From the NCBI GenBank assembly GCA_040954595.2, contig CM082583.2, positions 2,737,060 to 2,801,059 of the forward strand: DNA of 64,000 nucleotides. The letters are read 5' to 3'. How positions within the stretch are numbered: the stretch's first letter is position 1; the number at the start of each line of letters is the position of its first letter. Positions 1-64,000 of the stretch are shown here, in pieces. Source of the stretch: Balanoglossus misakiensis. Its lineage: Eukaryota > Animalia > Hemichordata. The notes beneath the pieces are model-generated. The model had not been told where the DNA came from and made no database searches. It saw only the letters and a program-made list of their open reading frames with translations. The translations under genes were made by a program, and so were the position numbers.

Positions 1-1
1 C

Positions 2-3070: not shown

Positions 3071-3071
3071 A

Positions 3072-13887: not shown

Positions 13888-13939
13888 ATATTCCAACAAT
13901 ACCAATAGGGGCACAAGCCCGATAGGCTTGTGCCCCTAA
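13888..13939. other. Orphan Helentron terminal hairpin (14-bp stem)
   Basis: TAGGGGCACAAGCC-CGATA-GGCTTGTGCCCCTA preceded by TTCCAACAATACCAA. A variant of the HINE terminal hairpin, seen only once in the window. Confidence 0.85.
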
Positions 13940-17642: not shown

Positions 17643-17674
<32 letters not shown>

Positions 17675-18672: not shown

Positions 18673-18680
18673 ACAATAAA

Positions 18681-30149: not shown

Positions 30150-30359
30150 GTAAGTAGTTTCTTAAGATATTTTGATTAATGGGTCAGTCAGTTAGTTAGT
30201 CAAGAAAAGGGTCAATTTTGCAGTAGATGGGTCGGCTGCTTACAATAAATATAGTTAGTTGACGACATCGCTTATCAAACGCCATCTTGTTCTAGGGCCA
30301 ATCCTGCCAATGGAAAGGCTTATAGTAAGTTCGATGAGGAGACAAGCGTCGGGTTTCAT

Positions 30360-30775
30360 AAAAAGTTTTATTGTTAAAAACTTGTTCTACCAACGTTTCG
30401 ATCCTTCACTGAGGATCTTCTTCAGGGATCTAAAAATAGCAAAATGTAGGTGGAAAATAAAAATGAGCTGTACGGTCAAAAATCTCATTGAGTATTGTAT
30501 AAATAAAGTCTGAAACGAAGACAAAATTAAAAACAGTCGGAACTGCAGTCGGACATGCGGACAAAAAATTAGACTTGAGTAAAATGACAACTTGTAAAAC
30601 GGAATGATAAAAATAAATGTAAAGAGACAAGACAAAAGAAACTTACTCAGCAGTGAAAGTCTGAATGTGGTCTGAATAAAGACAAAGAGGACTCCCTAGT
30701 ATGGGAGGAAAAATCAAACGGACTGCCTAGCAGTAAACAAAGACTATAGGTGGTGGGAAAAATATGAATGAAAGA
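30360..30775 (-). mobile_element. 3' region (pLTR/UTR) of a Penelope-like element
   Basis: Hammerhead-like motif followed by AATAAA (30367-30372, minus strand). Abuts the left end of the HINE array whose right end abuts the GIY-YIG stop codon. Outer boundary is approximate. Confidence 0.7.
30390..30427 (-). ncRNA. Minimal hammerhead ribozyme motif (Penelope type)
   Basis: Minus strand CC-CUGAAGA-A-GAUCC-UCAGUGAA-GGAUC-GAAA-CGUU-GG: core boxes, 5-bp stem II, palindromic AACGUU stem III, weak stem I. Confidence 0.7.
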
Positions 30776-33700
30776 ATTAAAGCTGCGAGCAGCATTGTCG
30801 GGCCCAAGCGCTGATCTTGAATTATATATGCACAGTATGAATGAGAAGAAACAGAATTTTTTATCGGATGTATTATCTCATGACATAATAAGGATGTGTG
30901 TATTTTTGCTGCTGAAATAGGGTGAAGTAGGTCAAAGGTCACCTGAGGTCACCCACAATTTGGGCAATTTTTTTTACCCATACTGGTCCATGTCCAACAA
31001 AAACCAAAACTCTAGCTCTATTGGTTCGCCTGTAATTAGGTATGTGCATATTTAATGAGGTCAGCAGATGTTACAGGTGACCCAAAAATGTGGCTTTACA
31101 TTTTGGTCCCATCCTACCAAATGCCATGGCTGTATCTGCTCTGGATGCTGAGATATGCGAAAGTAGGTCAAAGGTCACCAGAGGGCACCCAACATTTGGG
31201 CAAAAAATTTTGATCCCATACTGGTCCATGTCCAACAAAAACCAAACCTCTAGCTGTATTGGTTCGCCTGTTATTAGCTATGCACATAATTAATGAGGTC
31301 AGCTGAGGTCAAAGGGGTCATGAAAAGTAGCAAAATATTTTGATCACACACTAATCCACATTCATCAAAAACCAATCGTCTAGCCCTATAGGTTAGCCTG
31401 GAATTAGATATGCAGAAATAATAATGCGGGATAAGTAGGTCAAAGGTCATGTGAAAAATCGCCAAAAAATTGTAACATATTTTAGTCACATGACGATTGA
31501 TATCCATAAAAAGAATTTGTATGCTATCAATTTTTAGACTAGAAAAAGGAATTTCAATTTTTCACTGCTTTTTACAAAATCCAATATGGCCGCCATAATC
31601 TTCGACCAATCACAATGCTCTTTGCAAACTTGATAGACATCAGTGTAGTGACCATACTCCCCGAATCTTGCAACTCAGTCATCTCCCGTTCTGGAGAAGA
31701 AGATTTTTGGAGTTTAACTATGGTTTTTCGAAAATCCAAAATGGCCGCCATAATCTTCGACCAATCACAATGATCTTCGCAAACTTGATAGACATTAGTT
31801 AGGTGACCACATACCCCAAACCCCGTGTCTCGGTTATCACCGGTTCTGGAGAAGAAGATTTTTGAAATTTAAGCCAGATTTCAGAAAAAAAATTGTAGCA
31901 AAAAAACTGCAACATTGACAGCAAAATTTCCAATTACAAAAATGATGGGTAGAAGGTACTCTACCTGCATGCCAAATTTGAAGTCGATCTGACTTGTAGT
32001 TTCTGAGATCTGAGATTTGCATTTTTTCAGAAAATCCAATATGGCCGCCAGGTCACGTGACTAATTAAGTATTCACAAGTCACTGCACATCTACTCATTG
32101 ACCTTGACCACTGTAGCAAGTTTGAGAAGTGTACCTGCAGTAGTTTCAGAGATCTCGTTGGCCGAAGAATTGACACAAGAATAAAGAAAGAATTAAAGCT
32201 GCAAGCAGCATTGTCGGGCCCAAGCGCTGATCTTGAATTATATATGCACAGTATGAATGAGAAGAAACATAATTTTCTATCGGGTGTATTATCTCATGAC
32301 ATAACAAGGGCGTATGTATTTTTGCTGCTGAAATAGGGTAAAGTAGGTCAAAGGTCACCTGAGGTCATCCAACATTTGGGCAAAATATTTTGACCCATGC
32401 TGGGCCATGTCCAACAAAAACCAAAACTCTAGCTCTATTGGTTCGCGTGTAATTAGGTATGTGCATATTTAATGAGGTCAGCAGGTGTCACAGGTGAGCC
32501 AAAAATTTGGCTTTACATTTAGGTCCCATCCTGCCAAGTGCCATGGCTGTATCTGCTCTGGATGCTGAGATATGCGAAAGTAGGTCAAAGGTCACCAGAG
32601 GTCACCCAAAATTTGGGCAAAAATTTTGATCCCATACTGGTCCATGTCCAACAAAAATCAAACCTCTAGCTCTATTGGTTCGCCTGAAATTAGCTATGCA
32701 CATAATTAATGAGGTCAGCAGAGGTCAAAGGGGTCATGAAAAGTAGCAAAATATTTTGATCACACACTAATCCACATTCATCAAAAACCAAACCTCTAGC
32801 CCTATAGGTTAGCCTGGAATTAGATACGCAGAAATAATAACGCATGATAAGTAGGTCAAAGGTCATGTGAAAAATCACCAAAAAATTGTAGCATATTTTA
32901 GTCACATGACGACTGATATCCATAAAAAGAATTTGTATGCTATCAATTTTTAGACTAGAAAAAGGAATTTCAATTTTTCACTGCTTTTTACAAAATCCAA
33001 TATGGCCGCCATAATCTTCGACCAATCACAATGCTCTTTGCAAACTTGATAGACATCAGTGTAGTGACCATACTCCCTGAATCTTGCGACTCAGTCATCG
33101 GTCCTTCTGGAGAAGAAGATTTTTGCAGTTTTACTATGGTTTTTCGAAAATCCAATATGGCCGCCATAATCTTCGACCAATCACAATGATCTTCGCAAAC
33201 TTGATAGACATCAGTTAGGTGACCACATACCCCAAACCCCGTGTCTCGGTTATCACTGGTTCTGGAGAAGAAGATTTTTGAAATTTAAGCCAGATTTGAG
33301 AAAAACAACTGTAGCAAAAAAACTGCAACATTGACAGCAAAATTTCCAATTACACAAATGATGGGTAGAAGGTAGTCTACCTGCATGCCAAATTTGAAGT
33401 CGATCTGACTTGTAGTTTCTGAGATCTGAGATTTGATTTTTTTCAGAAAATCCAATATGGCCGCCAGGTCACGTGACTAATTAAGTATTCACAAGTCACT
33501 GCACATCTACTCATTGACCTTGACCACTGTAGCAAGTTTGAGAAGTGTACCTGCAGCGGTGTCTGAGATCTCGTTGCCCAAAGAATTGACACAAGAATAA
33601 AGAAAGAAAGAAAGAAAGAATTAAAGCTGCAAGCAGCATTGTCCGGGCCCAAGCTCTATTATCTGATCTGATTATTAGATATGCACATAATTAATGAGTA

Positions 33701-36700
33701 GAAACATAATGTTGTCTTTTATCGCATGAAATATCAAGGTTATATCTATGTTTGGTGCTGATATAGTGTTTAAAGTAGGTCAAAGGTCACCCAGGGGTCA
33801 CCAAAAATTTGGGGAGAATATTTTGACCCATAGTGGTCCATGTCCAACAAAAACCAGACCTCTAGCCCTTTTGGTTAGCCTGGAATTAGGTATGAACATA
33901 AATAATGAGTTAAGCAGGTGTCACAGGTGACCCAAAACTTTGGCTTTTCATTATGGCCCCATACCTCCAAACGCCAAGGCTGTATCTGCTGTGGATGTCG
34001 AGATATGCAAAAGTAGGTCAAAGGTCACCCGAGGTCACCCAAAATTTGGGCAACAAATTTTGACCCAATACTGGTCCATGTCCAATAAAAACCAAACCTC
34101 TCCGTCTATTGGTTCATCTGTAATTAGGTATGCGCATATTTAATGACGTCAGCAGAGGTCAAAGGGGTCATGAAAAGTAGCGAAATTTTTTGATCACATA
34201 CAAATCCACATACATCAAAACCAAAATGATAGCCCTATAGGTTAGCCTGGAATTAGATATGCAGAAAAAACGATGTGTCAAAAGTAGGTCAAAGGTCATT
34301 GGCAAAATTACCAAAATATTTGGGGTAGGTCCTGGCAGGGGTGATACCAATGTGCACAAAAATCAGAACTCTGGTACATTTAGAACACGTAGTATGAGCT
34401 ATATATGCATATATGCAGGTTCTTTAAAAAGTAGGTCAAAGGTCATGTGAAAATTGCCAAAATATTTGCAACATATTCTAGTCATATGACGACTCATATC
34501 CATAGAAAGAATTTGTATGCTATCTATTTTTAGACTAGAAAAATGATTTCTTAATTTTCACTGGTTTTTACAAAATCCAATATGGCCGCCATAATCTTCG
34601 ACCAATCACAACGGTCTTCGCAAACTTGATAGACATCAGTTAGGTGATGTCATACCCTAAATCCCATGACTCGGTTATTGCCGGTTCTGGAGAAGAAGAT
34701 TTTTGAAGATTTTACTGTACTTTTTTGAAAATCCAATATGGCGGCCAAAGTCACATGACCGCTCAGGATTTTATTGTCAAACTTTGAAGGGCAGAGGACA
34801 TGTGTACCATACACCAAATTTGAACTTGATTGGCCCTGTGGTTTTTGAGAAGAAGCCATTTAAAGATTTTCAGAAAATCCAATATGGCCGCCAGGTCACG
34901 TGACTAATTAAATATTCACAAGCCACTGCACATCTACTCATTGACCTTGACCACTGTAGCAAGTTTGAGAAGTGTACCTGTAGCCGTTTCAGAGATCTAG
35001 GAGAGCAAAGAATTGACATAAGAATAAAGAAAGAAAGAAATATAGCTGCAAGCAGCGATGACGGGCCCAAGCTTAAGCCGAAGGTCAAAGGTCATATGTC
35101 ATCACCCAAAAGTTGGGCAAGAAATTTTGACCCCATACTGGTCCATGTTCAACAAAAATCAAACCTCTAACCCTATTGGTTAGTCTGGAATAAGGTATGC
35201 ACATAATTAATGAGTTCACCAGGTGTTACAGGTGACTTAATAATTTCACTTTTCATTTTCAACCCATCCCTCCAAACGCCAAGGCTGTACTTGCTCTGGA
35301 TGCTGAGATATGGTTAAGTAGGTCAAAGGTCACCTGAGGTCACCCAAAATTTGGGCAAGAAATTTTGACCCTATACTGGTCCATGTCCAATAAGAACAAA
35401 ACCTGTAGCCCTATTAGTTATCCCTGAATTAGGTATGCACATAATTAATGAGATAAGCAGGTGTCACAGGTGACCCCCAATTTTGGCTTTTCAATTTTAG
35501 TCCCAACCCTCCAAACGCCAAGTCTGTACCTGCTCTGAATGCAGAGATATAGGAAAGTAGGTCAAAGGTCACCTGAGGTCACCCAAAATTTGGGCAAACT
35601 TTTTTTGACCCCATACTTGTCCATGTTCCACAAGAACAAAACCTCTAGCCCTAATAGTTAGCCGAAAATTAGGTATGCACATAATTAATGAGATAAGCAG
35701 GTGCCACAGGTGACCCCCAATTTTGGCTTTTCAATTTTAGTCCCAACCATCCAAACGCCAAGTCTGTACCTACTCTGAATGCAGAGATATAGGAAAGTAG
35801 GTCAAAGGTCACCTGAGGTCACCCAAAATTTATTTTGGCGAAATTTTTTGACCCCATACTGATCCATGTTCCACAAGAACAAAACCTCTAGCCCTAATAG
35901 TTAGCCCAAAATTAGGTATGCACATAATTAATGAGTTAAGCAGGTGTTACAGGTGAGCCAAAAATTTTGCCTTTTATTTTGGTCCCATTCTGCTTACAGG
36001 CCAATAGACAGTCACTGTACAGGACCATTGCACAGACGTGGACATAGCGTCATAGCTTAACTATACAGTATAGGCCCTTGGCTTAGTCCAAAAATATGAA
36101 AAACTAATAATATTTAAAAGTCTTCTTCTCAAAATAGACTTGGCCCACGGCCTTGATATTTGGTATGTTGGACACTGACCACATGGTCCACAAAGTATCC
36201 TAACAGAATTTTGATATCTCCATTCATATGCAAATTAGGCCCATTTGAAAACTTTCCCCATATATGGTCAACAGGTCACATGACTAATTAAACATTCACA
36301 AGGGTACTGCACCAGCTCTCATAGGCCTGCACCATTTTGCCAAGTTTGAAATTTGAAGGTTCAGCCGTTTTCAAGATCCTATTGGCCGAAAAAACTACAC
36401 AAGAAAAAAAAGAAGAAAAACCAGGATAATACCAATAGGGCCCAAGCGCTGCATGCGCTTGGGCCCTAAAAACCCCAACGAAACCAATACGGGCCCAAGC
36501 CTGGCTTGGCTTGGGCCCGTAAAAATTCCAACGAAACCAATAGGGCCCAAGCGCTTGCGTGCGCTTGGGCCCTAATTAAAGCTGCGAGCAGCATTGTCGG
36601 GCCCAAGCGCTGATCTTGAATTATATATGCACAGTATGAATGAGAAGAAACAGAATTTTCTATCGGATGTATTATCGCATGACATAACAAGGATGTGTGT

Positions 36701-39700
36701 ATTATTGCTGCTGAAATAGGGTGAAGTAGGTCAAAGGTCACCTGAGGTCACCCAACATTTGGGCAATTTTTTTTTACCCATACTGGTCCATGTCCAACAA
36801 AAACCAAAACTCTAGCTCTATTGGTTCGCCTGTAATTAGATATGTGCATATTTAATGAGGTCAGCAGGTGTCACAGGTGACCCAAAAATGTGGCTGTACA
36901 TTTTTGCCCCATCCTGCCAAATGCCAAGGCTGTATCTGCTCTGGATGCTGAGATATGCGAAAGTGGGTCAAAGGTCACCTGAGGTCACCAAACATTTGGG
37001 CAAAATTTTTTGACCCATACTGGTCCATGTCAAACAAAAACTAAAACTCTAGCTCTATTGGTTCGCCTGTAATTAGGTATGTGCATATTTAATGAGGTCA
37101 GCAGAGGTCAAAGGGGTCATGAAAAGTAGCAAAATATTTTGATCACACACTAATCCACATTCATCAAAAACCAAACCTCTAGCCCTATAGGTTAGCCTGG
37201 AATTAGATATGCAGAAATAATAACGCATGATAAGTAGGTCAAAGGTCATGTGAAAAATCACCAAAAAATTGTAGCATATTTTAGTCACATGACGACTGAT
37301 ATCCATAAAAAGAATTTGTATGCTATCAATTTTTAGACTAGAAAAAGGAATTTCAATTTGTCACTGCTTTTTACAAAATCCAATATGGCCGCCATAATCT
37401 TCGACCAATCACAATGCTCTTTGCAAACTTGATAGACATCAGTGTAGTGACCATACTCCCCGAATCTTGCGACTCAGTCATCGGTCGTTCTGGAGAAGAA
37501 GATTTTTGCAGTTTTACTATGGTTTTTCGAAAATCCAATATGGCCGCCATAATCTTCAACCAATCACAATGATCTTCGCAAACTTGATAGACATCAGTTA
37601 GGTGACCACATACCCCAAACCCCGTGTCTCGGTTATCACTGGTTCTGGAGAAGAAGATTTTTGAAATTTAAGCCAGATTTGAGAAAAACAACTGTAGCAA
37701 AAAAACTGCAACATTGACAGCAAAATAGCCAATTACACAAATGATGGGTAGAAGGTAGTCTACCTGCATGCCAAATTTGAAGTCGATCTGACTTGTAGTT
37801 TCTGAGATCTGAGATTTGATTTTTTTCAGAAAATCCAATATGGCCGCCAGGTCACGTGACTAATTAAGTATTCACAAGTCACTGCACATCTACTCATTGA
37901 CCTTGACCACTGTAGCAAGTTTGAGAAGTGTACCTGCAGCGGTGTCTGAGATCTCGTTGCCCAAAGAATTGACACAAGAATAAAGAAAGAAAGAAAGAAA
38001 GATTAAAGCTGCAAGCAGCATTGTCGGGCCCAAGCGCTGATCTTGAATTATATATGCACAGTATGAATGAGAAGAAACAGAATTTTCTATCGGATGTATT
38101 ATCTCATGACATAACAAGGATGTGTGTATTTTTGCTGCTGAAATAGGGTGAAGTAGGTCAAAGGTCACCTGAGGTCACCCACAATTTGGGCAATTTTTTT
38201 ACCCATACTGGTCCATGTCCAACAAAAACCAAAAGTCTAGCTCTATTGGTTCGCCTGTAATTAGGTATGTGCATATTTAATGAGGTCAGCAGGTGTCACA
38301 GGTGACCCAAAAATGTGGCTTTACATTTTGGTCCCATCCTACCAAATGCCATGGCTGTATCTGCTCTGGATGCTGAGATATGCGAAAGTAGGTCAAAGGT
38401 CACCAGAGGTCACCCAACATTTGGGCAAAAAATGTTGATCCCATACTGGTCCATGTCCAACAAAAACCAAACCTCTAGCTCTATTGGTTCGCCTGTAATT
38501 AGCTATGCACATAATTAATGAGGTCAGCAGAGGTCAAAGGGGTCATGAAAAGTAGCAAAATATTTTGATCACACACTAATCCACATTCATCAAAAACCAA
38601 ACGTCTAGCCCTATAGGTTAGCCTGGAATTAAATATGCAGAAATAATAACGCGTGATAAGTAGGTCAAAGGTCATGTGAAAAATCGCCAAAAAATTGTAA
38701 CATATTTTAGTCACATGACGATTGATATCCATAAAAAGAATTTGTATGCTATCAATTTTTAGACTAGAAAAAGGAATTTCAATTTTTCACTGCTTTTTAC
38801 AAAATCCAATATGGCCGCCATAATTTTCGACCAATCACAATGTTCTTTGCAAACTTGATAGACATCAGTGTAGTGACCATACTCCCCGAATCTTGCGACT
38901 CAGTTATTGCCTGTTCTGGAGAAGAAGATTTTTTGAGCTTTACTATGGTTTTTCGAAAATCCAATATGGCCGCCATAATCTTCGACCAATCACAATGATC
39001 TTCGCAAACTTGATAGACATCAGTTAGGTGACCACATACCACAAACCGCGTGACTCGGTTATCGCCGGTTCTGGAGAAGAAGATTTTTGAAATTTTGACC
39101 AGATTTCAGAAAAACAACTGTAGCAAAAAAACTGCAACATTGACAGCAAAATATCCAATTACAAAAATGATGGGTAGAAGGTACACTACCTGCACGCCAA
39201 ATCTGAAGTCGATCTGACTTGTAGTTTCTGAGATCTGCGATTTGCATTTTTTCAGAAAATCCAATATGGCCGCCAGGTCACGTGACTAATTAAGTATTCA
39301 CAAGTCACTGCACATCTACTTATTGACCTTGACCACTGTAGCAAGTTTGAGCAGTGTACCTGCAGTAGTTTCAGAGATCTCGTTGGCCGAAGAATTGACA
39401 CAAGAAAAAAGAAAGAAAGAAAGAATTAAAGCTGCGAGCAGCATTGTCGGGCCCAAGCGCTGATCTTGAATTATATATGCACAGTATGAATGAGAAGAAA
39501 CAGAATTTAATATCGGATGTATTATCTCATGACATAACAGGGATGTGTGTATTTTTGCTGCTGAAATAGGGTGAAGTAGGTCAAAGGTCACCTGAGGTCA
39601 CCCAACGTTTGGGCAATTTTTTTTACCCATACTGGTCCATGTCCAACAAAAACCAAAACTCTAGCTCTATTGGTTCGCCTGTAATTAGGTATGTGCATAT

Positions 39701-42700
39701 TAAATGAGGTCAGCAGGTGTCACAGGTGACCCAAAAATTTGGCTTTACATTAAGCTCCCATCCTGCCAAATGCCAAGGCTGTATCTGCTCTGGATGCTGA
39801 GATATGTGAAAGTAGGTCAAAGGTCACCAGAGGTCACCCAACATTTAGGCAAAAATTTTGACCCCATACTGGTCCATGTTCAACAAAAACCAAACCTCTA
39901 GCTCTGTTGGTTCGCCTGTAATTAGCTATGCACATAATTAATGAGGTCAGCTGAGGTCAAAGGGGTCATGAAAAGTAGCAAAATATTTTGATCACACACT
40001 AATCCACATTCATCAAAAACCAAACGTCTAGCCCTATAGGTTAGCCAGGAATTAGATATGCAGAAATAATAACGCGTGATAAGTAGGTCAAAGGTCATGT
40101 GAAAAATTGTCAAAAAATTGTAACATATTTTAGTCACATGACGATTGATATCCATAAAAAGAATTTGTATGCTATCAATTTTAAGACTAGAAAAAGGAAT
40201 TTCAATTTTTCACTGCTTTTTACAAAATCCAATATGGCCGCCATAATCTTCGACCAATCACAATGCTGTTTGCAAACTTGATAGACATCAGTGTAGTGAC
40301 CATACTCCCCGAATCTTGCGACTCAGTCATCGCCCGTTCTGGAGTAGAAGATTTTTGGAGTTTAACTATGGTTTTTCGAAAATCCAATATGGCCGCCATA
40401 ATCTTCGACCAATCACAATGATCTTCGCAAACTTGATAGACATCAGTTAGGTGACCACATACCCCAAACCGCGTGACTCGGTTATCGCCGGTTCTGGAGA
40501 AGAAGATTTTTGAAATTTTGACCAGATTTCAGAAAAACAACTGTAGCAAAAAAACTGCAACATTGACAGCAAAATATCCAATTACAAAAATGATGGGCTG
40601 AAGGTACACTACCTGCACGCCAAATCTGAAGTCGATCTGACTTGTAGTTTCTGAGATCTGAGATTTGCATTTTTTCAGAAAATCCAATATGGCCGCCATG
40701 TCACGTGACTAATTAAATATTCACAAGCCACTGCACATCGACTCATTGACCTTGACCACTGTAGCAAGTTTGAGAAGTGTACCTGCAGTAGTTTCAGAGA
40801 TTTAGTTGGCCGAAGAATTGACACAAGAAAAAAGAAAGAAAGAAAGAAAGAAAAACCCCAACGAAACCAATAGGGCCCAAGCGCAAGCAAGCGCTTGGGC
40901 CCTAAAGATTAAAGCTGCAAGCAGCATTGTCCGGGCCCAAGCTCTATTATCTGATCTGATTATTAGATATGCACATAATTAATGAGTAGAAACATAATGC
41001 TGTGTTTTATCCCATGAAATATCAAGTTTATATCTATGTTTGGTGTTGATATAGTGTTAAGTAGGTCAAAGGTCACCCAGAGGTCACCCACAATTTGGGC
41101 AGAAAATTTTGACCCATAGTGGTCCATGTTCAACAAAAACCAGATCTCTAGCCCTTTTGGTTAGCCCGTAATTAGGTATGCACATAAATAATGAGTTAAG
41201 CAGGTGTCACAGGTGACCAAAAACTTTGGCTTTTCATTATGGCCCCATACCTCCAAACGCCAAGGCTGTATCTGCTGTGGATGTCAAGATATGGAAAAGT
41301 AGGTCAAAGGTCACCCGAGGTCACCCAACATTTGGGCAAAATATTTTGACCCCATAGTGGTCCATGTATAACAAAAACAAAATCTCTAGGTCTATTGGTT
41401 CATCTGTAATTAGGTATGTGCATATTTAATGAGGTCAGCAGAGGTCAAAGGGGTCATGAAAAGTATCAAAATTTTTTGATCACATACAAATCCACATACA
41501 TCAAAAACCAAACTTATAGCCCTATTGGTTAGCCTGGAATTAGATATGCAGAAAAAGGATGCGTCAAAAGTAGGTCAAAGGTCATTGTCAAAATTACCAA
41601 AATATTTATAGCTTATTCTTGTCATATGATGATTCATATCCTTAAAAAGAATTTATGTGCTATCAATTTTTAGGCCAGAAAGGGAATTTTTACTTTTTAA
41701 TGGTTTTTCACAAAATCCAATATGGCCGCCATAATCTTCGACCAATCACATTCTTCTTAGCAAACTTGATAGACATCTTTTTAATGACCACACACACCAA
41801 ATCTTGTGACTCGGTTATCGCCGGTTCTTGAGAAGAAGATTTTTGAAATTTTACTAGGGTTTTTCGAAAATCCAATATGGCCGCCATAATCTTCGACCAA
41901 TCACAATGATCTTCGCAAACTTGATAGACATCAGTTAGGTGACCACATACACCAAACCCTGTGTCTCGGTTATCACCGGTTCTGGAGAAGAAGATTTTTG
42001 AAATTTAAGCCAGATTTCAGAAAAAAAATTGTAGCAAAAAACTGCAACTTTGTCAGCATAATTTCCAATTACAAAAATGATGGGCAGAAGGTAGTCTACC
42101 AGCATGCCAAATTTGAAGTCGATCTGACTTGTAGTTTCTGAGATCTGAGATTTGCATTTTTTCAGAAAATCCAAGATGGCCGCCAGGTCACGTGACTAAT
42201 TAAAAATTCAAGGTTCAATGCACGACTACTCATTGACCTTGACCACTGTAGCAAGTTTCAGAAGTGTACCTGCAGCGGTGTCTGAGATCTCGTGGGTCAA
42301 AGAATTGACACAAGAATAAAGAAAGAAAGAAAGAAAGTAAAATTCCAACGAAACCAATACGGGCCCAAGCCTGGCTTGGCTTGGGCCCGTAAAAAACCCC
42401 AACGAAACCAATAGGGCCCAAGCGCAAGCAAGCGCTTGGGCCCTAAAAAATTCCAACGAAACCAATAGGGCCCAAGCGCTTGCGTGCGCTTGGGCCCTAA
42501 TTAAAGCTGCAAGCAGCATTGTCCGGGCCCAAGCTCTATTATCTGATCTGATATTAGATATGCACATAATTAATGAGAAGAAACATAATGCTGTGTTTAT
42601 CCCATGAAATATCAAGGTTATAACTATATTTGGTGCTGATATAGTGTTAAGTAGGTCAAAGGTCACCCAGAGGTCACCCACAATTTGGGCAGAAAATTTT

Positions 42701-51700: not shown

Positions 51701-54700
51701 ACCATACTCCCCGAATCTTGCGACTCAGTCATCGTCCGTTCTGGAGAAGAAGATTTTTGGAGTTTAACTATGATTTTTCGAAAATCCAATATGGCCGCCA
51801 TAATCTTCGACCAATCACAATGATCTTCGCAAACTTGATAGACATCAGTTAGGTGACCACATACCCCAAACCCCGTGTCTCGGTTATTACCGGTTCTGGA
51901 GAAGAAGATTTTTGAAATTTAAGCCAGATTTCAGAAAAAAAATTGTAGCAAAAAAACTGCAACATTGACAGCAAAATTTCCAATTACAAAAATGATGGGT
52001 AGAAGGTAGTCTACCTGCATGCCAAATTTGAAGTCGATCTGACTTGTAGTTTCTGAGATCTGAGATTTGAATTTTTTCAGAAAATCCAATATGGCCGCCA
52101 GGTCACGTGACTAATTAATTATTCACAAGTCACTGCACATCTACTCATTGACCTTGACAACTGTAGCAAGTTTGAGCAGTGTACCTGCAGTAGTTTCAGA
52201 GATTTAGTTGGCCGAAGAATTGACACAAGAAAAAAGAAAGAAAGAAAGAAAGAAAGAATTAAAGCTGCAAGCAGCATTGTCGGGCCCAAGCGCTGATCTT
52301 GAATTATATATGCACAGTGTGAATGAGAAGAAACAGAATTTTCTATCGGATGTATTATCTCATGACATAACAAGGATGTGTGTATTTTTGCTGCTGAAAT
52401 AGGGTGAAGTAGGTCAAAGGTCACCTGAGGTCACCCAACATTTGGGTAATTTTTTTTTACCCATACTGGTCCATGTCCAACAAAAACCAAAACTCTAGCT
52501 GTATTGGTTCGCGTGTAATTAGGTATGTGCATATTTAATGAGGTCAGCAGGTGTCACAGGTGACCCAAAAATGTGGCTTTACATTTTGGTCCCATCCTAC
52601 CAAATGCCATGGCTGTATCTGCTCTGGATGCTGAGATATGCGAAAGTAGGTCAAAGGTCACCAGAGGTCACGCAACATTTGGGCAAAAAATTTTGATTCC
52701 ATTCTGGTCCATGTCCAACAAAAACCAAACCTCTAGCTCTATTGGTTCGCCTGTAATTAGCTATGCACATAATTAATGAGGTCAGCAGAGGTCAAAGGGG
52801 TCATGAAAAGTAGCAAAATATTTTGATCACACACTAATCCACATTCATCAAAAACCAAACGTCTAGCCCTACAGGTTAGCCTGGAATTAGATATGCAGAA
52901 ATAATAACGCGTGATAAGTAGGTCAAAGGTCATGTGAAAAATCGCCAAAAAATTGTAACACATTTTAGTCACATGACGATTGATATCCATAAAAAGAATT
53001 TGTATGCTATCAATTTTTAGACTAGAAAAAGGAATTTCAATTTTTCACTGCTTTTTACAAAATCCAATATGGCCGCCATAATCTTCGACCAATCACAATG
53101 CTCTTTGCAAACTTGATAGACATCAGTGTAGTGACCATACTCCTCGAATCTTGCGACTCAGTCATCGCCCGTTCTGGAGAAGAAGATTTTTGCAGTTTAA
53201 CTATGGTTTTTCGAAAATCCAATATGGCCGCCATAATCTTCGACCAATCACAATGATCTTCGCAAACTTGATAGACATCAGTTAGGTGACCACATACCCC
53301 AAACCCCGTGTCTCGGTTATCACCGGTTATGGAGAAGAAGATTTTTGAAATTTAAGCCAGATTTCAGAAAAAAAATTGTAGCCAAAAAACTGCAACATTG
53401 ACAGCAAAATAGCCAATTACAAAAATGATGGGTAGAAGGTAGTCTACCTGCATGCCAAATTTGAAGTCGATCTGACTTGTAGTTTCTGAGATCTGAGATT
53501 TGCATTTTTTCAGAAAATCCAATATGGCCGCCAGGTCACGTGACTAATTAAGTATTCACAAGTCACTGCACATCTACTCATAGACCTTGACCACTGTAGC
53601 AAGTTTGAGCAGTGTACCTGCAGTAGTTTCTGAGATTTAGTTGGCCGAAGAATTGACACAAGAAAAAAGAAAGAAAGAAAGAAAGAAAGAATTAAAGCTG
53701 CGAGCAGCATTGTCGGGCCCAAGCGCTGATCTTGAATTATATATGCACAGTATGAATGAGAAGAAACAGAATTTTCTATCGGATGTATTATCTCATGACA
53801 TAACAAGGACGTGTGTATTTTTGCTGCTTAAATAGGGTGAAGTAGGTCAAAGGTCACCTGAGGTCACCCAACATTTGGGCAATTTTTTTGACCCATACTG
53901 GTCCATGTCCAACAAAAACCAAAACTCTAGCTCTATTGGTTCGCCTGTAATTAGGTATGTGCATATTTAATGAGGTCAGCAGGTGTCACAGGTGACCCAA
54001 AAATGTGGCTTTACATTATGGTCCCATCCTACCAAATGCCATGGCTGTATCTGCTCTGGATGCTGAGATATGCGAAAGTAGGTCAAAGGTCACCAGAGGT
54101 CACCCAACATTTGGGCAAAAAATTTTGATCCCATACTGGTCTATGTCCAACAAAAACCAAACCTCTAGCTCTATTGGTTCGCCTGTAATTAGCTATGCAC
54201 ATAATTAATGAGGTCAGCAGAGGTCAAAGGGGTCATGAAAAGAAGCAAAATATTTTGATCACACACTAATCCACATTCATCAAAAACCAAACGTCTAGCC
54301 CTATAGGTTAGCCTGGAATTAGATATGCAGAAATAATAACGCGTGATAAGTAGGTCAAAGGTCATGTGAAAAATCGCCAAAAAATTGTAACATATTTTAG
54401 TCACATGACGATTGATATCCATAAAAAGAATTTGTATGCTATCAATTTTTAGACTAGAAAAAGGAATTTCAATTTTTCACTGCTTTTTACAAAATCCAAT
54501 ATGGCCGCCATAATCTTCGACCAATCACAATGCTCTTTGCAAACTTGATAGACATCAGTGTAGTGACCATACTCCTCGAATCTTGCGACTCAGTCATTGC
54601 CCGTTCTGGAGAAGAACATTTTTGCAGTTTAACTATGGTTTTTCGAAAATCCAATATGGCCGCCATAATCTTCGACCAATCACAATGATCTTCGCAAACT

Positions 54701-57700
54701 TGATAGACATCAGTTAGGTGACCACATACCCCAAACCCCGTGTCTCGGTTATCACCGGTTCTGGAGAAGAAGATTTTTGAAATTTAAGCCAGATTTCAGA
54801 AAAAAAATTGTAGCAAAAAACTGCAACACTGTAGCAAAATTTCCAATTACAAAAATGATGGGTAGAAGGTAGTCTACCTGCATGCCAAATTTGAAGTCGA
54901 TCTGACTTGTAGTTTCTGAGATCTGAGATTTGAATTTTTTCAGAAAATCCAATATGGCCGCCAGGTCACGTGACTAATTAAGTATTCACAAGTCACTGCA
55001 CATCTACTCATTGACCTTGACCACTGTAGCAAGTTTGAGAAGTGTACCTGCAGTAGTTTCAGAGATCTCGTTGGCCGAAGAATTGACACAAGAATAAAGA
55101 AAGAAAGAAAGAAAGAAAGAAAAATTCCAACGAAACCAATAGGGCCCAAGCGCTTGCTTGCGCTTGGGCCCTAAAAACCCCAACGAAACCAATAGGGCCC
55201 AAGCGCAAGCAAGCGCTTGGGCCCTAAAAACCCCAACGAAACCAATAGGGCCCAAGCGCTTGCTTGCGCTTGGGCCCTAAAAAACCCCAACGAAACCAAT
55301 AGGGCCCAAGCGCTTGCGTGCGCTTGGGCCCTAATTAAAGCTGCAAGCAGCATTGTCGGGCCCAAGCGCTGATCTCGAATTATATATGCACAGTATGAAT
55401 GAGAAGAAATAGAATTTTCTATCGGGTGTATTATCTCATGACATAACAAGGACGTATGTATTTTTGCTGCTGAAATAGGGTGAAGTAGGTCAAAGGTCAC
55501 CTGAGGTCACCCAACATTTGGGCAATTTTTTTTTTACCCATACTGGTCCATGTCCAACAAAAAACAAAACTCTAGCTCTATTGGTTCGCCTGTAATTAGG
55601 TATGTGCATATTTAATGAGGTCAGCAGGTGTAACAGGTGACCAAAAAATGTGGCTTTACATTTTGGTCCCATCCTGCCAAATGCCATGGCTGTATCTGCT
55701 CTGGATGCTGAGATATGCGAAAGTAGGTCAAAGGTCACCAGAGGTCACCCAAAATTTGGGCAAAAATTTTGATCCCATACTGGTCCATGTCCAACAAAAA
55801 TCAAACCTCTAGCTCTATTGGTTCGCCTGAAATTAGCTATGCACATAATTAATGAGGTCAGCAGAGGTCAAAGGGGTCATGAAAAGTAGCACAATATTTT
55901 GATCACACACTAATCCACATTCATCAAAAACCAAACCTCTAGCCCTATAGGTTAGCCTGGAATTAGATATGCAGAAATAATAACGCATGATAAGTAGGTC
56001 AAAGGTCATGTGAAAAATCGCCAAAAAATTGTAGCATATTTTAGTCACATGACGACTGATATCCATAAAAAGAATTTGTATGCTATCAATTTTTAGACTA
56101 GAAAAAGGAATTTCAATTTTTCACTGCTTTTTACAAAATCCAATATGGCCGCCATAATCTTCGACCAATCACAATGCTCTTTGCAAACTTGATAGACATC
56201 AGTGTAGTGACCATACTCCCCGAATCTTGCGACTCAGTCATCGGTCGTTCTGGAGAAGAAGATTTTTGCAGTTTTACTATGGTTTTTCGAAAATCCAATA
56301 TGGCCGCCATAATCTTCGACCAATCACACCGATCTTCGCAAACTTGATAGACATCAGTTAGGTGACCACATACCCCAAACCCCGTGTCTCGGTTATCACT
56401 GGTTCTGGAGAAGAAGATTTTTGAAATTTAAGCCAGATTTGAGAAAAACAACTGTAGCAAAAAAACTGCAACATTGACAGCAAAATTTCCAATTACACAA
56501 ATGATGGGTAGAAGGTAGTCTACCTGCATGCCAAATTTGAAGTCGATCTGACTTGTAGTTTCTGAGATCTGAGATTTGATTTTTTTCAGAAATTCCAATA
56601 TGGCCGCCAGGTCACGTGACTAATTAAGTATTCACAAGTCACTGCACATCTACTCATTGACCTTGACCACTGTAGCAAGTTTGAGAAGTGTACCTGCAGC
56701 GGTGTCTGAGATCTCGTTGCCCAAAGAATTGACACAAGAATAAAGAAAGAAAGAAAGAAAGAATTAAAGCTGCGAGCAGCATTGTCGGGCCCAAGCGCTG
56801 ATCTTGAATTATATATGCACAGTATGAATGAGAAGAAACAGAATTTTCTATCGGATGTATTATCGCATGACATAACAAGGATGTGTGTATTATTGCTGCT
56901 GAAATAGGGTGAAGTAGGTCAAAGGTCACCTGAGGTCACCCAACATTTGGGCAATTTTTTTTTACCCATACTGGTCCATGTCCAACAAAAACCAAAACTC
57001 TAGCTCTATTGGTTCGCCTGTAATTAGGTATGTGCATATTGAATGAGGTCAGCAGGTGTCACAGGTGACCCAAAAATTTGGCTTTACATTTTGGTCCCAT
57101 CCTGCCAAATGCCAAGGCTGTATCTGCTCAGGATGCCACGATCTCCGAAAGTAGGTAAAAGGTCACCTGAGGTCACCAAACATTTGGGCAAAATCTTTTG
57201 ACCCATACTGGTCCATGTCAAACAAAAACTAAAACTCTAGCTCTATTGGTTCGCCTGTAATTAGGTATGTGCATATTTAATGAGGTCAGCAGGTGTCACA
57301 GGTGACCCAAAAATGTGGCTGTACATTTTGGCCCCATCCTGCCAAATGCCAAGGCTGTATCTGCTCTGGATGCTGAGATATGCGAAAGTGGGTCAAAGGT
57401 CACCTGAGGTCACCAAACATTTGGGCAAAAATGTTTGACCCATACTGGTCCTTGTCAAACAAAAACTAAAACTCTAGCTCTATTGGTTCGCCTGTAATTA
57501 GGCATGTGCATAGTTAATGAGGTCAGCAGGTGTCACAGGTGACCCAAAAATGTGGCTGTACATTTTGGCCCCATCCTGCCAAATGCCAAGGCTGTATCTG
57601 CTCTGGATGATGAGATATGCGAAAGTGGGTCAAAGGTCACCTGAGATCACCAAACATTTGGGCAAAATTTTTTGACCCATACTGGTCCATGTCAAACAAA

Positions 57701-60700
57701 AACTAAAACTCTAGCTCTATTGGTTCGCCTGTAATTAGGTATGTGCATATTTAATGAGGTCAGCAGGTGTCACAGGTGACCCAAAAATGTGGCTGTACAT
57801 TTTGGCCCCATCCTGCCAAATGCCAAGGCTGCATCTGCTCTGGATGCTGAGATATGCGAAAGTGGGTCAAAGGTCACCTGAGGTCACCAAACATTTGGGC
57901 AAAATTTTTTGACCCATACTGGTCCATGTCAAACAAAAACTAAAACTCTAGCTCTATTGGTTCGCCTGTAATTAGGTATGTGCATATTTAATGAGGTCAG
58001 CAGGTGTCACAGGTGACCCAAAAATGTGGCTGTACATTTTGGCCCCATCCTGCCAAATGCCAAGGCTGTATCTGCTCTGGATGCTGAGATATGCGAAAGT
58101 AGGTCAAAGGTGACCAGAGGTCACCCAATATTTGGGCAAAAAATTTTGTTCCCATAGTGGTCCATGTCCAACAAAAACCAAACCTCTAGCTCTATTGGTT
58201 CGCCTGTAATTAGCTATGTGCATAATTAATGAGGTCAGCAGAGGTCAAAGGGGTCATGAAAAGTAGCAAAATATTTTGATCACACACTAATCCACATGCA
58301 TCAAAAACCAAACGTCTAGCCCTATAGGTTAGCCTGGAAATAGATATGCAGAAATAATAACGTGTGAAAAGTAGGTCAAAGGTCATGTGAAAAATCGTCA
58401 AAAAATTGTAACATAATTTAGTCACATGACGATTGATATCCATAAAAAGAGTTTGTATGCTATCAATTTTTACACTAGGAAAAGGAATTTCAATTTTTCA
58501 CTGCTTTTTACATAATCCAATATGGCCGCCATAATCTTCGACCAATCACAATGCTCTTTGCAAACTTGATAGACATCAGTGAAGTGACCAAACTCCCCGA
58601 ATCTTGCGACTCAGTTATCGCCCGTTCTGGAGAAGAAGATTTTTTGAGTTTTACTCTGGTTTTTCGAAAATCCAATATGGCCGCCATAATCTTCGACCAA
58701 TCACAATGATCTTCGCAAACTTGATAGACATCAGTTAGGTGACCACATACCCCAAACGGCGTGACTCGGTTATCGCCGGTTCTGGAGAAGAAGATTTTTG
58801 AAATTTTGACCAGATTTCAGAAAAACAACTGTAGCAAAAAAACTGCAACATTGACAGCAAAATATCCAATTACAAAAATGATGGGCAGAGGGTATACTAC
58901 CAGCACACCAAATCTGAAGTCGATCTGACTAGTAGTTTCTGAGATCTGAGATTTGCATTTTTTCAGAAAATCCAATATGGCCGCCATGTCACGTGACTAA
59001 TTAAGTATTCACAAGTCACTGCACATCTACTCATTGACCTTGACCACTGTAGCAAGTTTGAGAACTGTACCTGCAGCGGTGTCTGAGATCTAGCGCGCGA
59101 AAGAAATGAACCAAGAATAAAGAAAGAAAGAAAGAAAGAAAGAAAGAAAAACCCCAACGAAACCAATACGGGCCCAAGCCTGGCTTGGCTTGGGCCCGTA
59201 ATTAAAGCTGCAAGCAGCATTGTCGGGCCCAAGCGCTGATCCGGTATTATATATGCACAGTATGAATGAGAAGAAACAGAATGCTCTATCAGGTGTTTTA
59301 TATCATGACATAACAAGGACGTATGTATTTTTCCTGCTGAAATAGTGTAAAGTAGGTCAAAGGTCACCTGAGGTCACCCAACATTTGGGCAAAATTTATT
59401 GACCCATACTGTTCCATGTCCGACAAGAACTAAAACTCTAGTTCTATTGGTTCGTCTGTAATTAGGTATGTGCATATTTAATGAGGTCAGCAGGTGTCAC
59501 AGGTGACTCAAAAATGTGGCTTTACATTTTGGTCCCATCCTGCCAAATGCCAAGGCTGTATCTGCCCTGGATTCTGAGATATGCGAAAGTAGGTCAAAGG
59601 TCACCAGAGGTCACCCAATATTTGGGCAACAAATTTTGACCCCATATTGGTCCATGTCCAACAAAAACCAAACCTCTAGCTCTATTGGTTCGCCTGTAAT
59701 TAGCTATGCACATAATTAATGAGGTCAGCAGAGGTCAAAGGGGTCATGAAAAGTAGCAAAATATTTTGATCACACACTAATCCACATTCATCAAAAACCA
59801 AACGTCTAGCCTTATAGATTAGCCTGGAATTAGATATGCAGAAATAATAACGCGTGATAAGTAGGTCAAAGGTCATGTGAAAAATCGCCAAAAAATTCTA
59901 ACATATTTTAGTCACATGACGATTGATATCCATAAAAAGAATTTGTATGCTATGAATTTTTAGACTAGAAAAAGGAATTTCAATTTGTCACTGCTTTTTA
60001 CAAAATCCAATATGGCCGCCATAATCTTCGACCAATCACAATGCTCTTTGCAAACTTGATAGACATCAGTGTAGTGACCATACTCCCCAAATCTTGCAAC
60101 TCAGTCATCGCCCGTTCTGGAGAAGAAGATTTTTGGAGTTTAACTATGGTTTTTCAAAAATCCAATATGGCCGCCATAATCTCCGACCAATCACAATGAT
60201 CTTCGCAAACTTGATAGACATCAGTTAGGTGACCACATACACCAAACCCTGTGTCTCGGTTATTGCCGGTTCTGGAGAAGAAGATTTTTGAAATTTAAGC
60301 CAGATTTCAGAAAAAAAATTGTAGCAAAAAACTGCAACTTTGTCAGCATAATTTCCAATTACAAAAATGATGGGCAGAAGGTAGTCTACCAGCATGCCAA
60401 ATTTGAAGTCGATCTGACTTGTAGTTTCTGAGATCTGAGATTTGCATTTTTTTAGAAAATCCAAGATGGCTGCCAGGTCACGTGACTAATTAAAAATTCA
60501 AGGGTTCAATGCACGACTACTCATTGACCTTGACCACTGTAGCAAGTTTCAGAAGTGTACCTGCAGCGGTGTCTGAGATCTCGTGGGTCAAAGAATTGAC
60601 ACAAGAATAAAGAAAGAAAGAAAGAAAGAAAGTAAAATTCCAACGAAACCAATACGGGCCCAAGCCTGGCTTGGCTTGGGCCCGTAATTAAAGCTGCAAG

Positions 60701-63700
60701 CAGCATTGTCGGGCCCAAGCGCTGATCTTGAATTATATATGCACAGTATGAATGAGAAAAAACAGAATTTTCTATCGTATGTATTATCTGATGACATAAC
60801 AAGGATGTGTGTATTTTTGCTGCTGAAATAGGGTGAAGTAGGTCAAAGGTCACCAGAGGTCACGCAACATTTGGGCAAAAAATTTTGATCCCACACTGGT
60901 CCATGTCCAACAAAAAACAAAAGTCTAGCTCTATTGGTTCGCCTGTAATTAGGTATGTGCATATTTAATGAGGTCAGCAGGTGTCACAGGTGACTCAAAA
61001 ATGTGGCTTTACATTTTGGTCCCATCCTACCAAATGCCATGGCTGTATCTGCTCTGGATGCTGAGATATGCGAAAGTAGGTCAAAGGTCACCAGAGGTCA
61101 CGCAACATTTGGGCAAAAAAGTTTGATCTCATACTGGTCTGTGTCCAACAAAAACCAAACCTCTAGCTCTATTGGTTCGCCTGTAATTAGCTATGCACAT
61201 AATTAATGAGGTCAGCAGAGGTCAAAGGGGTCATGAAAAGTAGCAAAATATTTTGATCACACACTAATCCACATTCATCAAAAACCAAACGTCTAGCCCT
61301 ACAGGTTAGCCTGGAATTAGATATGCAGAAATACTAACGCGTGATAAGTAGGTCAAAGGTCATGTGAAAAATCGCCGAAAAATTGTAACATATTTTAGTC
61401 ACATGACGATTGATATCCATGAAAAGAATTTGTATGCTATCAATTTTTAGACTAGAAAAAGGAATTTCAATTTTTCACTGCTTTTTACAAAATCCAATAT
61501 GGCCGCCATAATCTTCGACCAATCACAATGCTCTTTGCAAACTTGATAGACATCAGTGTCGTGACCATACTCCCCAAATCTTGCGACTCAGTCATCGCCC
61601 GTTCTGGAGAAGAAGATTTTTGGAGTTTAACTATGGTTTTTCTAAAATCCAATATGGCCGCCATAATCTTCGACCAATCACAATGATCTTCGCAAACTTG
61701 ATAGACATCAGTTAGGTGACCACATACCCCAAACCCCGTGTCTCGGTTATCACTGGTTCTGGAGAAGAAGATTTTTGAAATTTAAGCCAGATTTCAGAAA
61801 AAAAATTGTAGCAAAAAAACTGCAACATTCACAGCAAAATTTCCAATTACAAAAATGATGGGTAGAAGGTAGTCTACCTGCATGCCAAATTTGAAGTCGA
61901 TCTGACTTGTAGTTTCTGAGATCTGAGATTTGAATTTTTTCAGAAAATCCAATATGGCCGCCAGGTCACGTGACTAATTAATTATTCACAAGTCACTGCA
62001 CATCTACTCATTGACCTTGACCACTGTAGCAAGTTTGAGAAGTGTACCTGCAGTAGTTTCAGAGATCTCGTTGGCCGAAGAAATTGACACAAGAAAAAAG
62101 AAAGAAAGAATTAAAGCTGCAAGCAGCATTGTCCGGGCCCAAGCTCTATTATCTGATCTGATATTAGATATGCACATAATTAATGAGTAGAAACATAATG
62201 CTGTTCTATCCCATGAAATATCAAGGTTATATCTATGTTTGGTGCTGATAAAGTGTTAAGAAGGTCAAAGGTCACCCAGAGGTCACCCAACATTTGGGCA
62301 GAAAATTTTAATCCATAGTGGTCCATGTCCAACAAAAACCAGACCTCTAGCCCTTTTGGTTAGCCTATAATTAGGTATGCACATAATTAATGAGTTAAGC
62401 AGGTGTCACAGGTGACCCAAAACTTTGGCTTTTCATTATGGCCCCATACCTCCAAACGCCAAGGCTGTATCTGCTGTGGATGTCGAGATATGCAAAAGTA
62501 GGTCAAAGGTCACCCGAGGTCATCCAACATTTGGGCAAAATATTTTGACCCCATACTGATCCATGTCCAGAAAAAAACAAACCTCTAGGTCATTTGGTTC
62601 ATCTGTAATTAGGTATGCGCATATTTAATGAGGTCAGCAGAGGTCAAAGGGGTCATGAAAATTAGCAAAAATTTTTGATCACATACAAAACCACATACAT
62701 CAAAAACCAAACTTATAGCCCTATTGGTTAGCCTGGAATTAGATATGCAGAAAAATGATGCGTCAAAAGTAGGTCAAAGGTCATTGCCAAAATTACCAAA
62801 ATATTTATAGCTTATTCTTGTCATATGATGATTCATATCCATAAAAAGAATTTCTGTGCTATCAATTTTTAGGCTAGAAACAGAATTTTTACTTTTTAAT
62901 CGTTGTTCACAAAATCCAATATGGCCGCCAAAATCTTCGACCAATCACAATGATCTTCGCAAACTTGATAGACATCTGTTTAATGACCGCACACACCAAA
63001 TCTTGTGACTCGGTTATCGCCGGTTCTTGAGAAGAAGATTTTTGAAATTTTACTAGGGTTTTTCGAAAATCCAATATGGCCGCCATAATCTTCCACCAAT
63101 CACAATGATCTTCGCAAACTTGATAGACCTCAGTTTGGTGACCACATACCCCAAACCGCGTGACTCGGTTATCGCCGGTTCTGGAGAAGAAGATTTTTGA
63201 AATTTTGACCAGATTTCAGAAAAACAACTGTAGCAAAAAAACTGCAACATTGACAGCAAAATATCCAATTACAAAAATGATGGGTAGAAGGTAGACTACC
63301 TGCACACCAAGTTTGAAGTCGATCTGACTTGTAGTTTCTGAGATCTGAGATTTGCATTTTTTCAGAAAATCTAATATGGCCGCCAGGTCACGTGACTAAT
63401 TAAAAATTCAAGGGTTCAATGCACATCTACTCATTGACCTTGACCACTGTAGCAAGTTTGAGAAGTGTACCTGCAGTGGTGTCTGAGATCTAGAGCGACA
63501 AAGAATTGACACAAGAATAAAGAAAGAAGAAGAAAGAAGAAAGAAGGAAAGACAGAAAAACCCCAACGAAACCAATAGGGCCCAAGCGCTGGTATGCGCT
63601 TGGGCCCTAAAAACCCCAACGAAACCAATAGGGCCCAAGCGCTTGCGTGCGCTTGGGCCCTAAAAATTCCAACGAAACCAATAGGGCCCAAGCGCTTGCG

Positions 63701-63716
63701 TGCGCTTGGGCCCTAA
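30776..63716. mobile_element. 33-kb array of 22 same-orientation, nested non-autonomous Helentrons (HINEs)
   Basis: Left termini at 30776, 32192, 33620, 35040, 36575, 38002, 39425, 40908, 42500, 43934, 45044, 46252, 46324, 49400, 50826, 52258, 53691, 55334, 56763, 59201, 60687, 62110. 19 right-terminal hairpins, many stacked (36421-36575 x3, 42340-42500 x3, 46146-46252 x2, 55121-55334 x4, 63557-63716 x3). Confidence 0.92.
57007..58200. repeat. Expanded ~237-bp internal subrepeat in the unit starting at 56763
   Basis: TATTGGTTCGCCTG recurs at 57007, 57244, 57481, 57718, 57955, 58193 (6 copies versus 2 in sister units). Confidence 0.9.
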
Positions 63717-63723
63717 AAAAGTT

Positions 63724-63999
63724 CTACCAGTCCTTTTTGTTGATACCAGTGGGTGAAAGGGTACCAAGTGATTTAATAATTTTCAGTTCCAGTTGCTTTC
63801 TTATTTTGTCGTGTCTCGAATATACCTTGCACAGACCAGTGAATTGGAAATGGTGAATGTTGTGATCAGGTTCATGGAAGTGATGAGCGACTAGAGTGTC
63901 TTTGTGTGTACGGATACTGTAAAGGTGTTCGTTGATTCTGATACGGAGTTCCCGTTTTGTTTCCCCGATGTAAAATTTGTCGCATTTGATACAGACGAT
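63724..63999 (-). CDS. Penelope-like element GIY-YIG endonuclease C-terminus (ORF extends beyond window)
   Basis: Hand translation: IVCIKCDKFYIGETKRELRIRINEHLYSIR..VAHHF..DH..KQLELKIIKSLGTLSPTGINKKDW*. Has CxxC, YIGET, R..EH, HF..H, E and PxGIN motifs of PLE endonucleases. Absent from the ORF track because the start lies outside the window. Confidence 0.9.
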   Translation of the reverse strand: MVCIKCDKFYIGETKRELRIRINEHLYSIRTHKDTLVAHHFHEPDHNIHHFQFTGLCKVYSRHDKIRKQLELKIIKSLGTLSPTGINKKDW

Positions 64000-64000
64000 G

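Follow-up and report, generated by a model that had tools for sequence, protein, structure and literature searches.

How does an array of transposon copies, all lying on one strand, come to hold more left ends than closing hairpins, with many of those hairpins stacked far from the bodies they belong to? This question is raised by a 64,000-nucleotide stretch of the hemichordate Balanoglossus misakiensis (contig CM082583.2 of assembly GCA_040954595.2, positions 2,737,060 to 2,801,059; hereafter the window), in which an earlier note, made from the letters alone, had described a Helentron array nested into itself. A motif scan of the window for left ends and hairpin modules, with coordinates read on the plus strand, located 22 left ends but 19 hairpin modules between 30777 and 63716, on a single strand throughout. 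The modules form stacks of 3, 3, 2, 4 and 3 plus four single hairpins, and in 13 of the 22 units the microsatellite tract runs directly into the left end of the next unit, its own hairpin split off, just as the note had said of units whose missing hairpins reappear later in stacks. The array is best explained as a nest of non-autonomous Helentrons, most of them sitting in the A-run of another copy or flush on its end, probably placed in trans by a Helentron transposase that would itself be drawn to resident ends. Its layout is as follows.

30777..63716, minus strand (DINE-1 convention): main nested array, 32,940 bp, 22 HINE copies, non-coding
30777..36575, minus strand: block 1, with units 1 (30777), 2 (32193), 3 (33621) and 4 (35040, divergent subfamily)
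36420-36575, minus strand: hairpin stack of block 1, three modules; unit 1 is without one
36576..42500, minus strand: block 2; unit 5 is host of unit 6 (38003), and unit 6 of units 7 (39426) and 8 (40909)
40855-40905: hairpin of unit 7, within block 2
42342-42500: hairpin stack of block 2, three modules
42501..46252, minus strand: block 3, with units 9, 10 (43935) and 11 (45045)
46149-46252: hairpin stack of block 3, two modules; unit 10 is likely without one
46253..55334, minus strand: block 4; unit 12 is host of unit 13 (46325-48050, in the body of unit 12)
49401, 50827, 52259 and 53692: starts of units 14, 15, 16 and 17, further guests of unit 12 in block 4
55124-55334: hairpin stack of block 4, four modules; one of units 14, 15 and 16 is without a hairpin
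55335..63716, minus strand: block 5; unit 18 is host of units 19 (56764-59201), 20 (59202-60687) and 21 (60688)
62111: start of unit 22, guest of unit 21 in the inner nest of block 5
63560-63716: hairpin stack of block 5, three modules

The units are Helentrons of the HINE/DINE-1 type

The array units are non-autonomous Helentrons of the HINE/DINE-1 type, without coding capacity. On the minus strand each copy reads, in order, TT, a subterminal repeat within a 14-bp hairpin, a TTTC microsatellite, internal repeats (tandem units of about 155 bp and about 237 bp), a second subterminal repeat and a small palindrome; DINE-1 usage places the 5′ end at the hairpin and puts these elements on the minus strand. 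In the accessible parts of the published accounts, to which all our citations refer, this plan is described for HINE/DINE-1 elements (PMC4067079; PMC2374699) and oyster Cg_HINE (PMC7492417), and the likeness takes in the subterminal inverted repeats, the hairpin with its adjacent microsatellite, the central repeats, the palindrome at the opposite end, T-T insertion without duplication and the lack of coding sequence.

These features recur among the copies: firstly, a perfect 14-bp stem is present in 23 of 23 hairpin modules (three were folded, z -4.9 to -7.4); secondly, a GAAA tract lies beside the hairpin end in 25 of 25 units; thirdly, the subterminal inverted repeats, which lie 3 nt inside one end and 22-24 nt inside the other, match over 10-13 bp in all 22 paired units, with four at 10 bp against about 11-15 bp in the HINE plan. 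The left-end palindrome, found at 25 of 25 left ends, has a 4-bp stem only and folds no better than shuffled sequence (two of two folded). Unit 17 provides an example of each part.

53692..53726, plus strand: left end, a short palindrome and then, 23 nt inside the end, the subterminal inverted repeat
55089..55126, plus strand: intact landing pad, the GAAA tract followed by its closing five-A run
55124..55174, plus strand: hairpin module, a 14-bp perfect stem that contains the subterminal inverted repeat and stops 3 nt short of the end (-19.1 kcal/mol, z -6.3)

The earlier assignment to Helentron-type elements is thus upheld by structure. Canonical Helitrons were rejected, since the ends here are TT and AA with subterminal inverted repeats, not a TC start and a CTRR end without them. 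At the left end, read depth exceeds that of unique DNA by a factor of thousands, a figure that is no copy number.

Most insertions share one register in the closing A-run

Five As separate the tract from the hairpin module in 10 of 12 intact copies, units 8 and 20 having an altered run. Where a guest intervenes, the As to its left and right sum to five in 10 of 10 testable nests, split 1+4 in three and 2+3 in seven; random assignment would give a five-A sum in all nests with probability 1/120, and 54 of 191 possible bracket parses pass it. In 11 of 11 displaced hairpins the distance between host stem and cut is 18-19 nt. Insertions read A^A on the plus strand, that is T-T on the other, with no target duplication, and a 2-bp duplication is ruled out by those nests in which only one A precedes the guest. 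A cut-and-paste miniature inverted-repeat transposable element (MITE) was rejected on the same ground, as a duplicated AA fails at 3 of the 10 nests.

Two deep public sequencing runs (X1 and X2, of one sample) cover the locus, of which they may be the origin; a third (X3) covers almost none of it. Contigs of a multi-copy repeat from X1 and X2 pass from 30776 straight to 63717 with neither duplication nor loss, and represent a paralogue with several differences, not an allele. Likewise, once its guest 13 is removed, unit 12 shows only 2 differences from unit 21 over 1402 positions. The empty site, this twin comparison and all ten rebuilt pads agree with the insertion at TT/AA without target-site duplication that had been proposed. 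The flanks are:

30358..30776, minus strand: left flank, likely the 3′ untranslated end of a multi-copy Penelope-like repeat
63717..64000, minus strand: right flank, GIY-YIG coding end with its stop at 63724 (PF01541, E 5.2e-6)

As a minus-strand GIY-YIG frame ends in the right flank, the array interrupts what we take, from that domain, to be a Penelope-like repeat.

The 22 events of the array comprise 13 insertions at the pad, one a single repeat upstream in the tract, six flush joints, one insertion within a body and the seed; exact head-to-tail joints number six here and two in a second nest described below. Each body offers on average 10.7 other runs of five or more As and 8.3 of Ts, about 19 alternative sites, and 10 of 12 non-junction self-insertions nevertheless lie at the pad when register-checked nests only are counted (binomial 6e-12 at 1/20). 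The landing point, flush joints aside, is one fixed register in the five-A run that closes the tract, not GAAA as such. Of the proposal that the GAAA tract is the landing pad, the part that stands is that the target travels in the element; GAAA itself is not required, and the tract is GAA in a divergent host at 9201 and AAT or AAG in relatives.

The altered pads of units 8 and 20 (42311-42345 and 60602-60640) share a T before four As, and neither is filled; these are two cases only.

Displaced hairpins match distant bodies

Units 2, 5 and 18 pair with a TT..GCGT hairpin, units 6, 7 and 16 with a GCAAG hairpin, and the twins 12 and 21 both with a CC..GCGT hairpin; unit 3 pairs with a CCTGG hairpin, as does its twin at 9202 (2.9% apart). 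Every pairing of body subfamily and hairpin variant named in the earlier note is present in the sequence. We then left unchanged the 12 pairs in which body and hairpin are directly joined and, 5000 times, reassigned the 10 displaced hairpins at random to their 10 hosts. Under the bracket parse of the note, in which left ends open and hairpins close, nearest-body hairpin distances are 1.4-2.1, as compared to 4.0-4.4 after shuffling (p 0.0006-0.0056 in five of five body segments). Among 48 within-stack orders, last-in-first-out ranks 1-3 by this distance and first-in-first-out 42-48.

The parse itself is not unique. It ties for fifth to eighth place among the 191 bracket parses, and those that score better change only which of units 9 and 10, and which of units 14, 15 and 16, has no hairpin; between units 9 and 10 we favour unit 9 as the owner of the hairpin, since its irregular tract resembles that of intact units with the same hairpin type. 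What survives of the stack reading is thus last-in-first-out pairing better than shuffled, with the hairpin-less unit ambiguous within those two sets. A tree of body ends, a check that the note had suggested, has 4 of 20 inner branches well supported; it groups 2/5/18, 3 with the 9202 copy, 8/20 and 10/11/13/19, each with one hairpin type. The remaining branches are poorly supported.

Together, the empty site, the register in 10 of 10 nests and last-in-first-out pairing agree with the recursive self-insertion claimed for this locus, and we consider it very probable that recursive insertion built the array. As a record of insertion order, which the note had taken it to be, the array is partial, as three hairpins are missing and whole nests could have been imported. 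Outer units precede inner ones because nest geometry requires it, whereas the order of siblings is not readable, a flush joint being possible on both sides. The place of unit 7, a single repeat upstream of unit 8, hints that copies were added to the left.

Related families nest as well, and also disperse

A left-end scan of metagenome contigs yielded 50 loci, likely DNA of host animals. Of their 51 left ends, 47 follow AA; 10 lie flush after a hairpin, one follows after 3 nt, four follow a family body and tract that lack a hairpin, and 36 are dispersed. Merging four redundant pairs leaves 47 distinct left ends, of which 13 directly adjoin an end of the family (eight hairpin joints, one with a 3-nt spacer and four body-tract joints) and 34 are dispersed, counts that short contigs bias, probably toward solo copies. 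Two loci (L002 and L023) contain hairpin stacks. At a BLAST threshold of 1e-5 the relative loci have no match to the window, terminal motifs being all they have in common with it, and a hairpin motif scan of the metagenomes gave 0 matches.

The dispersed sites are loosely A-rich (57% A as compared to 30%), and so loose a consensus alone is unlikely to place more than a quarter of insertions exactly at ends, from which we infer end attraction. The nests of relatives, their 34 dispersed ends and their AAT and AAG tracts indicate that nesting is clade-wide, that homing is not exclusive and that GAAA is not the key. The claim that such arrays grow by homing into themselves is therefore not supported as an exclusive rule.

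A second nest and a candidate transposase

The window contains another nest, on the same strand as the array, and a long transposase frame.

2..3070, plus strand: transposase frame, 1022 amino acids, 5′ open at window position 1, with a PIF1 helicase and a C-terminal APE-type endonuclease
7311..9201, minus strand: body and GAA tract of the divergent host in the second nest, with 72-73% identity to array units over 8041-9200
9202..13887, minus strand: second nest, a head-to-tail row of three intact copies (9202, 10667, 12401)
13888..13939, minus strand: displaced divergent hairpin of the second-nest host, with a different subterminal repeat

Positions 9202-13939 hold three left ends, three hairpins and the divergent hairpin. 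A loose end at 8044, seen in two contigs, carries the subterminal repeat of that hairpin, which supports its pairing with the 7311-9201 body. The body end and GAA tract of this host (9150-9201) resemble those of a nested host in relative locus L048; the bodies do not align.

The 2-3070 frame matches PF05970 (E 5.2e-31), PF03372 (E 1e-6) and Helraiser (7LCC, E 5.2e-15); its predicted domain order is that of a Helentron transposase, of which the Rep part would lie outside the window. Multi-copy contigs cover most of the stretch from frame to body (1-7302, with bin 3400-3708 nearly uncovered), which makes the second-nest host likely the tail of an autonomous Helentron, and the 7311-9201 body a putative tail of this helicase-endonuclease element. 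The frame runs opposite to the DINE-1 orientation, as also in the D. ananassae case (PMC4067079). Just past its stop, 3071-3600 is a decayed duplicate (75-80%) of the endonuclease-coding tail.

How the array was built

We propose that a Helentron transposase acting in trans would cut A-rich strands between two As and insert precise element ends there, strongly favouring resident ends. Beside the hairpin, the best A-rich site would be the one that the tract supplies, and since each insertion would keep the host tract and both host ends while adding a new pad, the site would renew itself and the nest deepen. The first copy may have been seeded at a tract-like site in the Penelope-like repeat. 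The three missing hairpins could reflect loss of one 53-bp module within a stack, or transposition of a two-body composite from an older nest; such composites fit the scheme proposed for FoHeli (PMC5148889, Fig. 7). That end attraction acts on top of a preference for A-tracts is the view we lean towards. Only tentatively would we extend it to a rule in which Helentron transposases use resident ends as platforms, at a fixed distance from the hairpin, and self-homing general to the clade builds arrays by recursion with a parsable record.

Several observations weigh against the proposal. Hairpins fall short of left ends by the imbalance given above. A rank-correlation version of the pairing test is weak (p 0.025-0.44, below 0.05 in three of five segments), and by the same measure last-in-first-out ranks 9-18 of the 48 orders. 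Adjacent units are slightly more alike than units overall (10.5% versus 12.0% divergent, p 0.039). Pad sequence and hairpin distance are confounded, and the seed site and the site of unit 13 have no hairpin nearby. The candidate transposase tail, 72-73% identical to array units and with another subterminal inverted repeat, is a relative and not a demonstrated mobiliser; an autonomous partner of a HINE would be more than 95% identical to it at the ends, and the window contains only this relative. Our literature search found no biochemistry of Helentron targeting.

The strongest competitor, which we nevertheless think unlikely, is pure sequence preference: the transposase, perhaps through its APE domain, would recognise a tract plus A-run anywhere, and nesting would be a by-product. 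Sequence matters under this reading and under ours. A matrix built from pads only ranks the seed site in the flank ninth of 34,210 windows, the six better windows forming one poly-A run, and 30766-30776 is the sole match outside elements, among 54, to the tract 11-mer, a pattern picked after the seed site was known, which counts against giving it weight. Unit 13, the sole body-internal guest, sits where a G-to-A change present in 2 of 14 A-type units creates a six-A run; its exact register ranks 39 of 2,772, the best window lying 3 nt away, a further point against our proposal. Three dispersed copies of relatives lie in genomic AAT runs, and a preserved target also accounts for Drosophila dimers (PMC5932611). 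Yet the dispersed consensus of relatives is loose while 13 of 47 ends abut family ends, and tracts vary (GAAA, GAA, AAT) while the position near the hairpin stays constant.

Less probable still is that the nests were ready-made composites moved whole from elsewhere, with bodies reshuffled by recombination, so that local order is not local history. Three hairpin-less bodies fit proposals made for FoHeli and maize (PMC5148889; PMC3288121), and units 5, 9, 19 and 20 are mosaic: unit 19 (56764-59201) has a start like unit 5, 5.6 copies of the 237-bp repeat and an end like unit 13; unit 20 (59202-60687) ends like unit 8; and the end of unit 9 (42501-43934) resembles the divergent host at 9040-9185. 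The twins 12 and 21, moreover, host units 14 and 22, which are mutual nearest relatives. These guests, however, differ at 60 positions, as compared to 2 between their hosts, and their insertion registers differ too. The near-identity of the twins suggests that their guests arrived within a short time, unless conversion homogenised the twins. The array has no higher-order or lag period, and composites would relocate the targeting elsewhere without removing it.

Tandem amplification, whether by unequal exchange or as rolling-circle concatemers, followed by hairpin loss or local duplication, is very improbable. The single orientation, the 1.3% between units 10 and 11 and the slight similarity of neighbours are what it would predict. 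Neighbours, however, differ by 1-30%, which argues that the array is not a product of amplification; stacked hairpins differ from one another and match distant bodies; the register holds in 10 of 10 nests; and first-in-first-out order is near last of 48. Head-to-tail partners, 3.5-15.3% apart in nine pairs, are not concatemers of one circle. The host is its guest's nearest relative in only 2 of 17 pairs. As a gauge of whether inner copies are younger than outer ones, the distance to the nearest relative in the window reflects subfamily sampling. Register, pairing and neighbour divergence thus concur with the earlier dismissal of simple tandem amplification. Homologous recombination of a circle was likewise set aside by reasoning, as it predicts tandem copies with swapped hairpins, not the order body-body-hairpin-hairpin. 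An assembly artefact is hardly credible, although no contig spans the array and missing modules could be collapsed duplicates (hairpins identical to a neighbour's would fit unit 10, nearly unit 1, and 15 or 16 only if 14 keeps its hairpin), since no two units are identical, pairing and register hold together over as much as 9 kb, the flanks join as a real empty site and the same joints occur in unrelated data.

Relation to known systems

Self-insertion and multiple ends are already published as scattered cases. In FoHeli, of the Helitron2 type, duplicated hairpin ends of 31-85 nt were ascribed to self-insertion and composites with unequal ends predicted, from a single nested case together with orphan ends; the present array keeps its host bodies, nests to a depth of 4-5 and uses a site fixed to 1 nt (PMC5148889). 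Maize Helitrons with multiple termini also stack ends of related subfamilies, but are canonical Helitrons, with nested intermediates hypothesised and no defined pad (PMC3288121). Related ends are stacked as well in Xenopus HelenXT233, as a single doubled left end (10.1101/2024.02.08.579435). Double insertions that seed satellites (PMC5932611), self-insertion multimers of MITEs (PMC5172404) and telomere-targeting Paramecium Helitrons (PMC13085455) show, as does the present array, a site preference that leaves its target preserved and so builds tandem or nested multimers of one orientation; they belong to other transposon classes or have a host repeat as target. The present array differs from all three in that each element carries its target along and copies adjoin without an intervening duplication. 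Accounts of HINE/DINE-1 elements describe clustering and T-rich targets, in contrast to the fixed-site recursion into their own microsatellite seen here (PMC4067079; PMC2374699; PMC7492417), and for oyster, Helitron loci that are nested and shuffled are catalogued in a review (PMC12628747). We found no deep one-site recursive nesting of HINEs in the accessible literature; subscription papers, Repbase reports and supplements may hold one.

The locus bears on Helentron target choice and on the role of the extra endonuclease. With a one-base target, a natural mutant site in unit 12 and, in units 8 and 20, two altered pads that hold no guest, sequence preference and end attraction can be tested against each other. 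It makes visible a full nested intermediate, earlier only postulated for elements with multiple ends, and a way for transposons to form long arrays that needs no unequal exchange, in loci that annotation would misread as truncated tandem copies plus a 53-bp satellite.

Other features of the window

Exon-like frames on the plus strand between 13909 and 30150 belong to an extracellular multidomain gene with fibronectin III and kringle domains and a weak thrombospondin-1 match (E 0.039). In the region of this host gene, 15783-19661 (minus strand) is a long interspersed nuclear element whose long frames encode reverse transcriptase and APE domains; the ORF1-like frame upstream of them has no Pfam match. 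A 560-bp element with terminal inverted repeats lies between TTAA copies at 5729-6288, and contigs skip it exactly. At 29459-29630 there is a high-depth 170-bp inverted-repeat element, whose flanking 9-bp direct repeat copies a splice-donor-like site.

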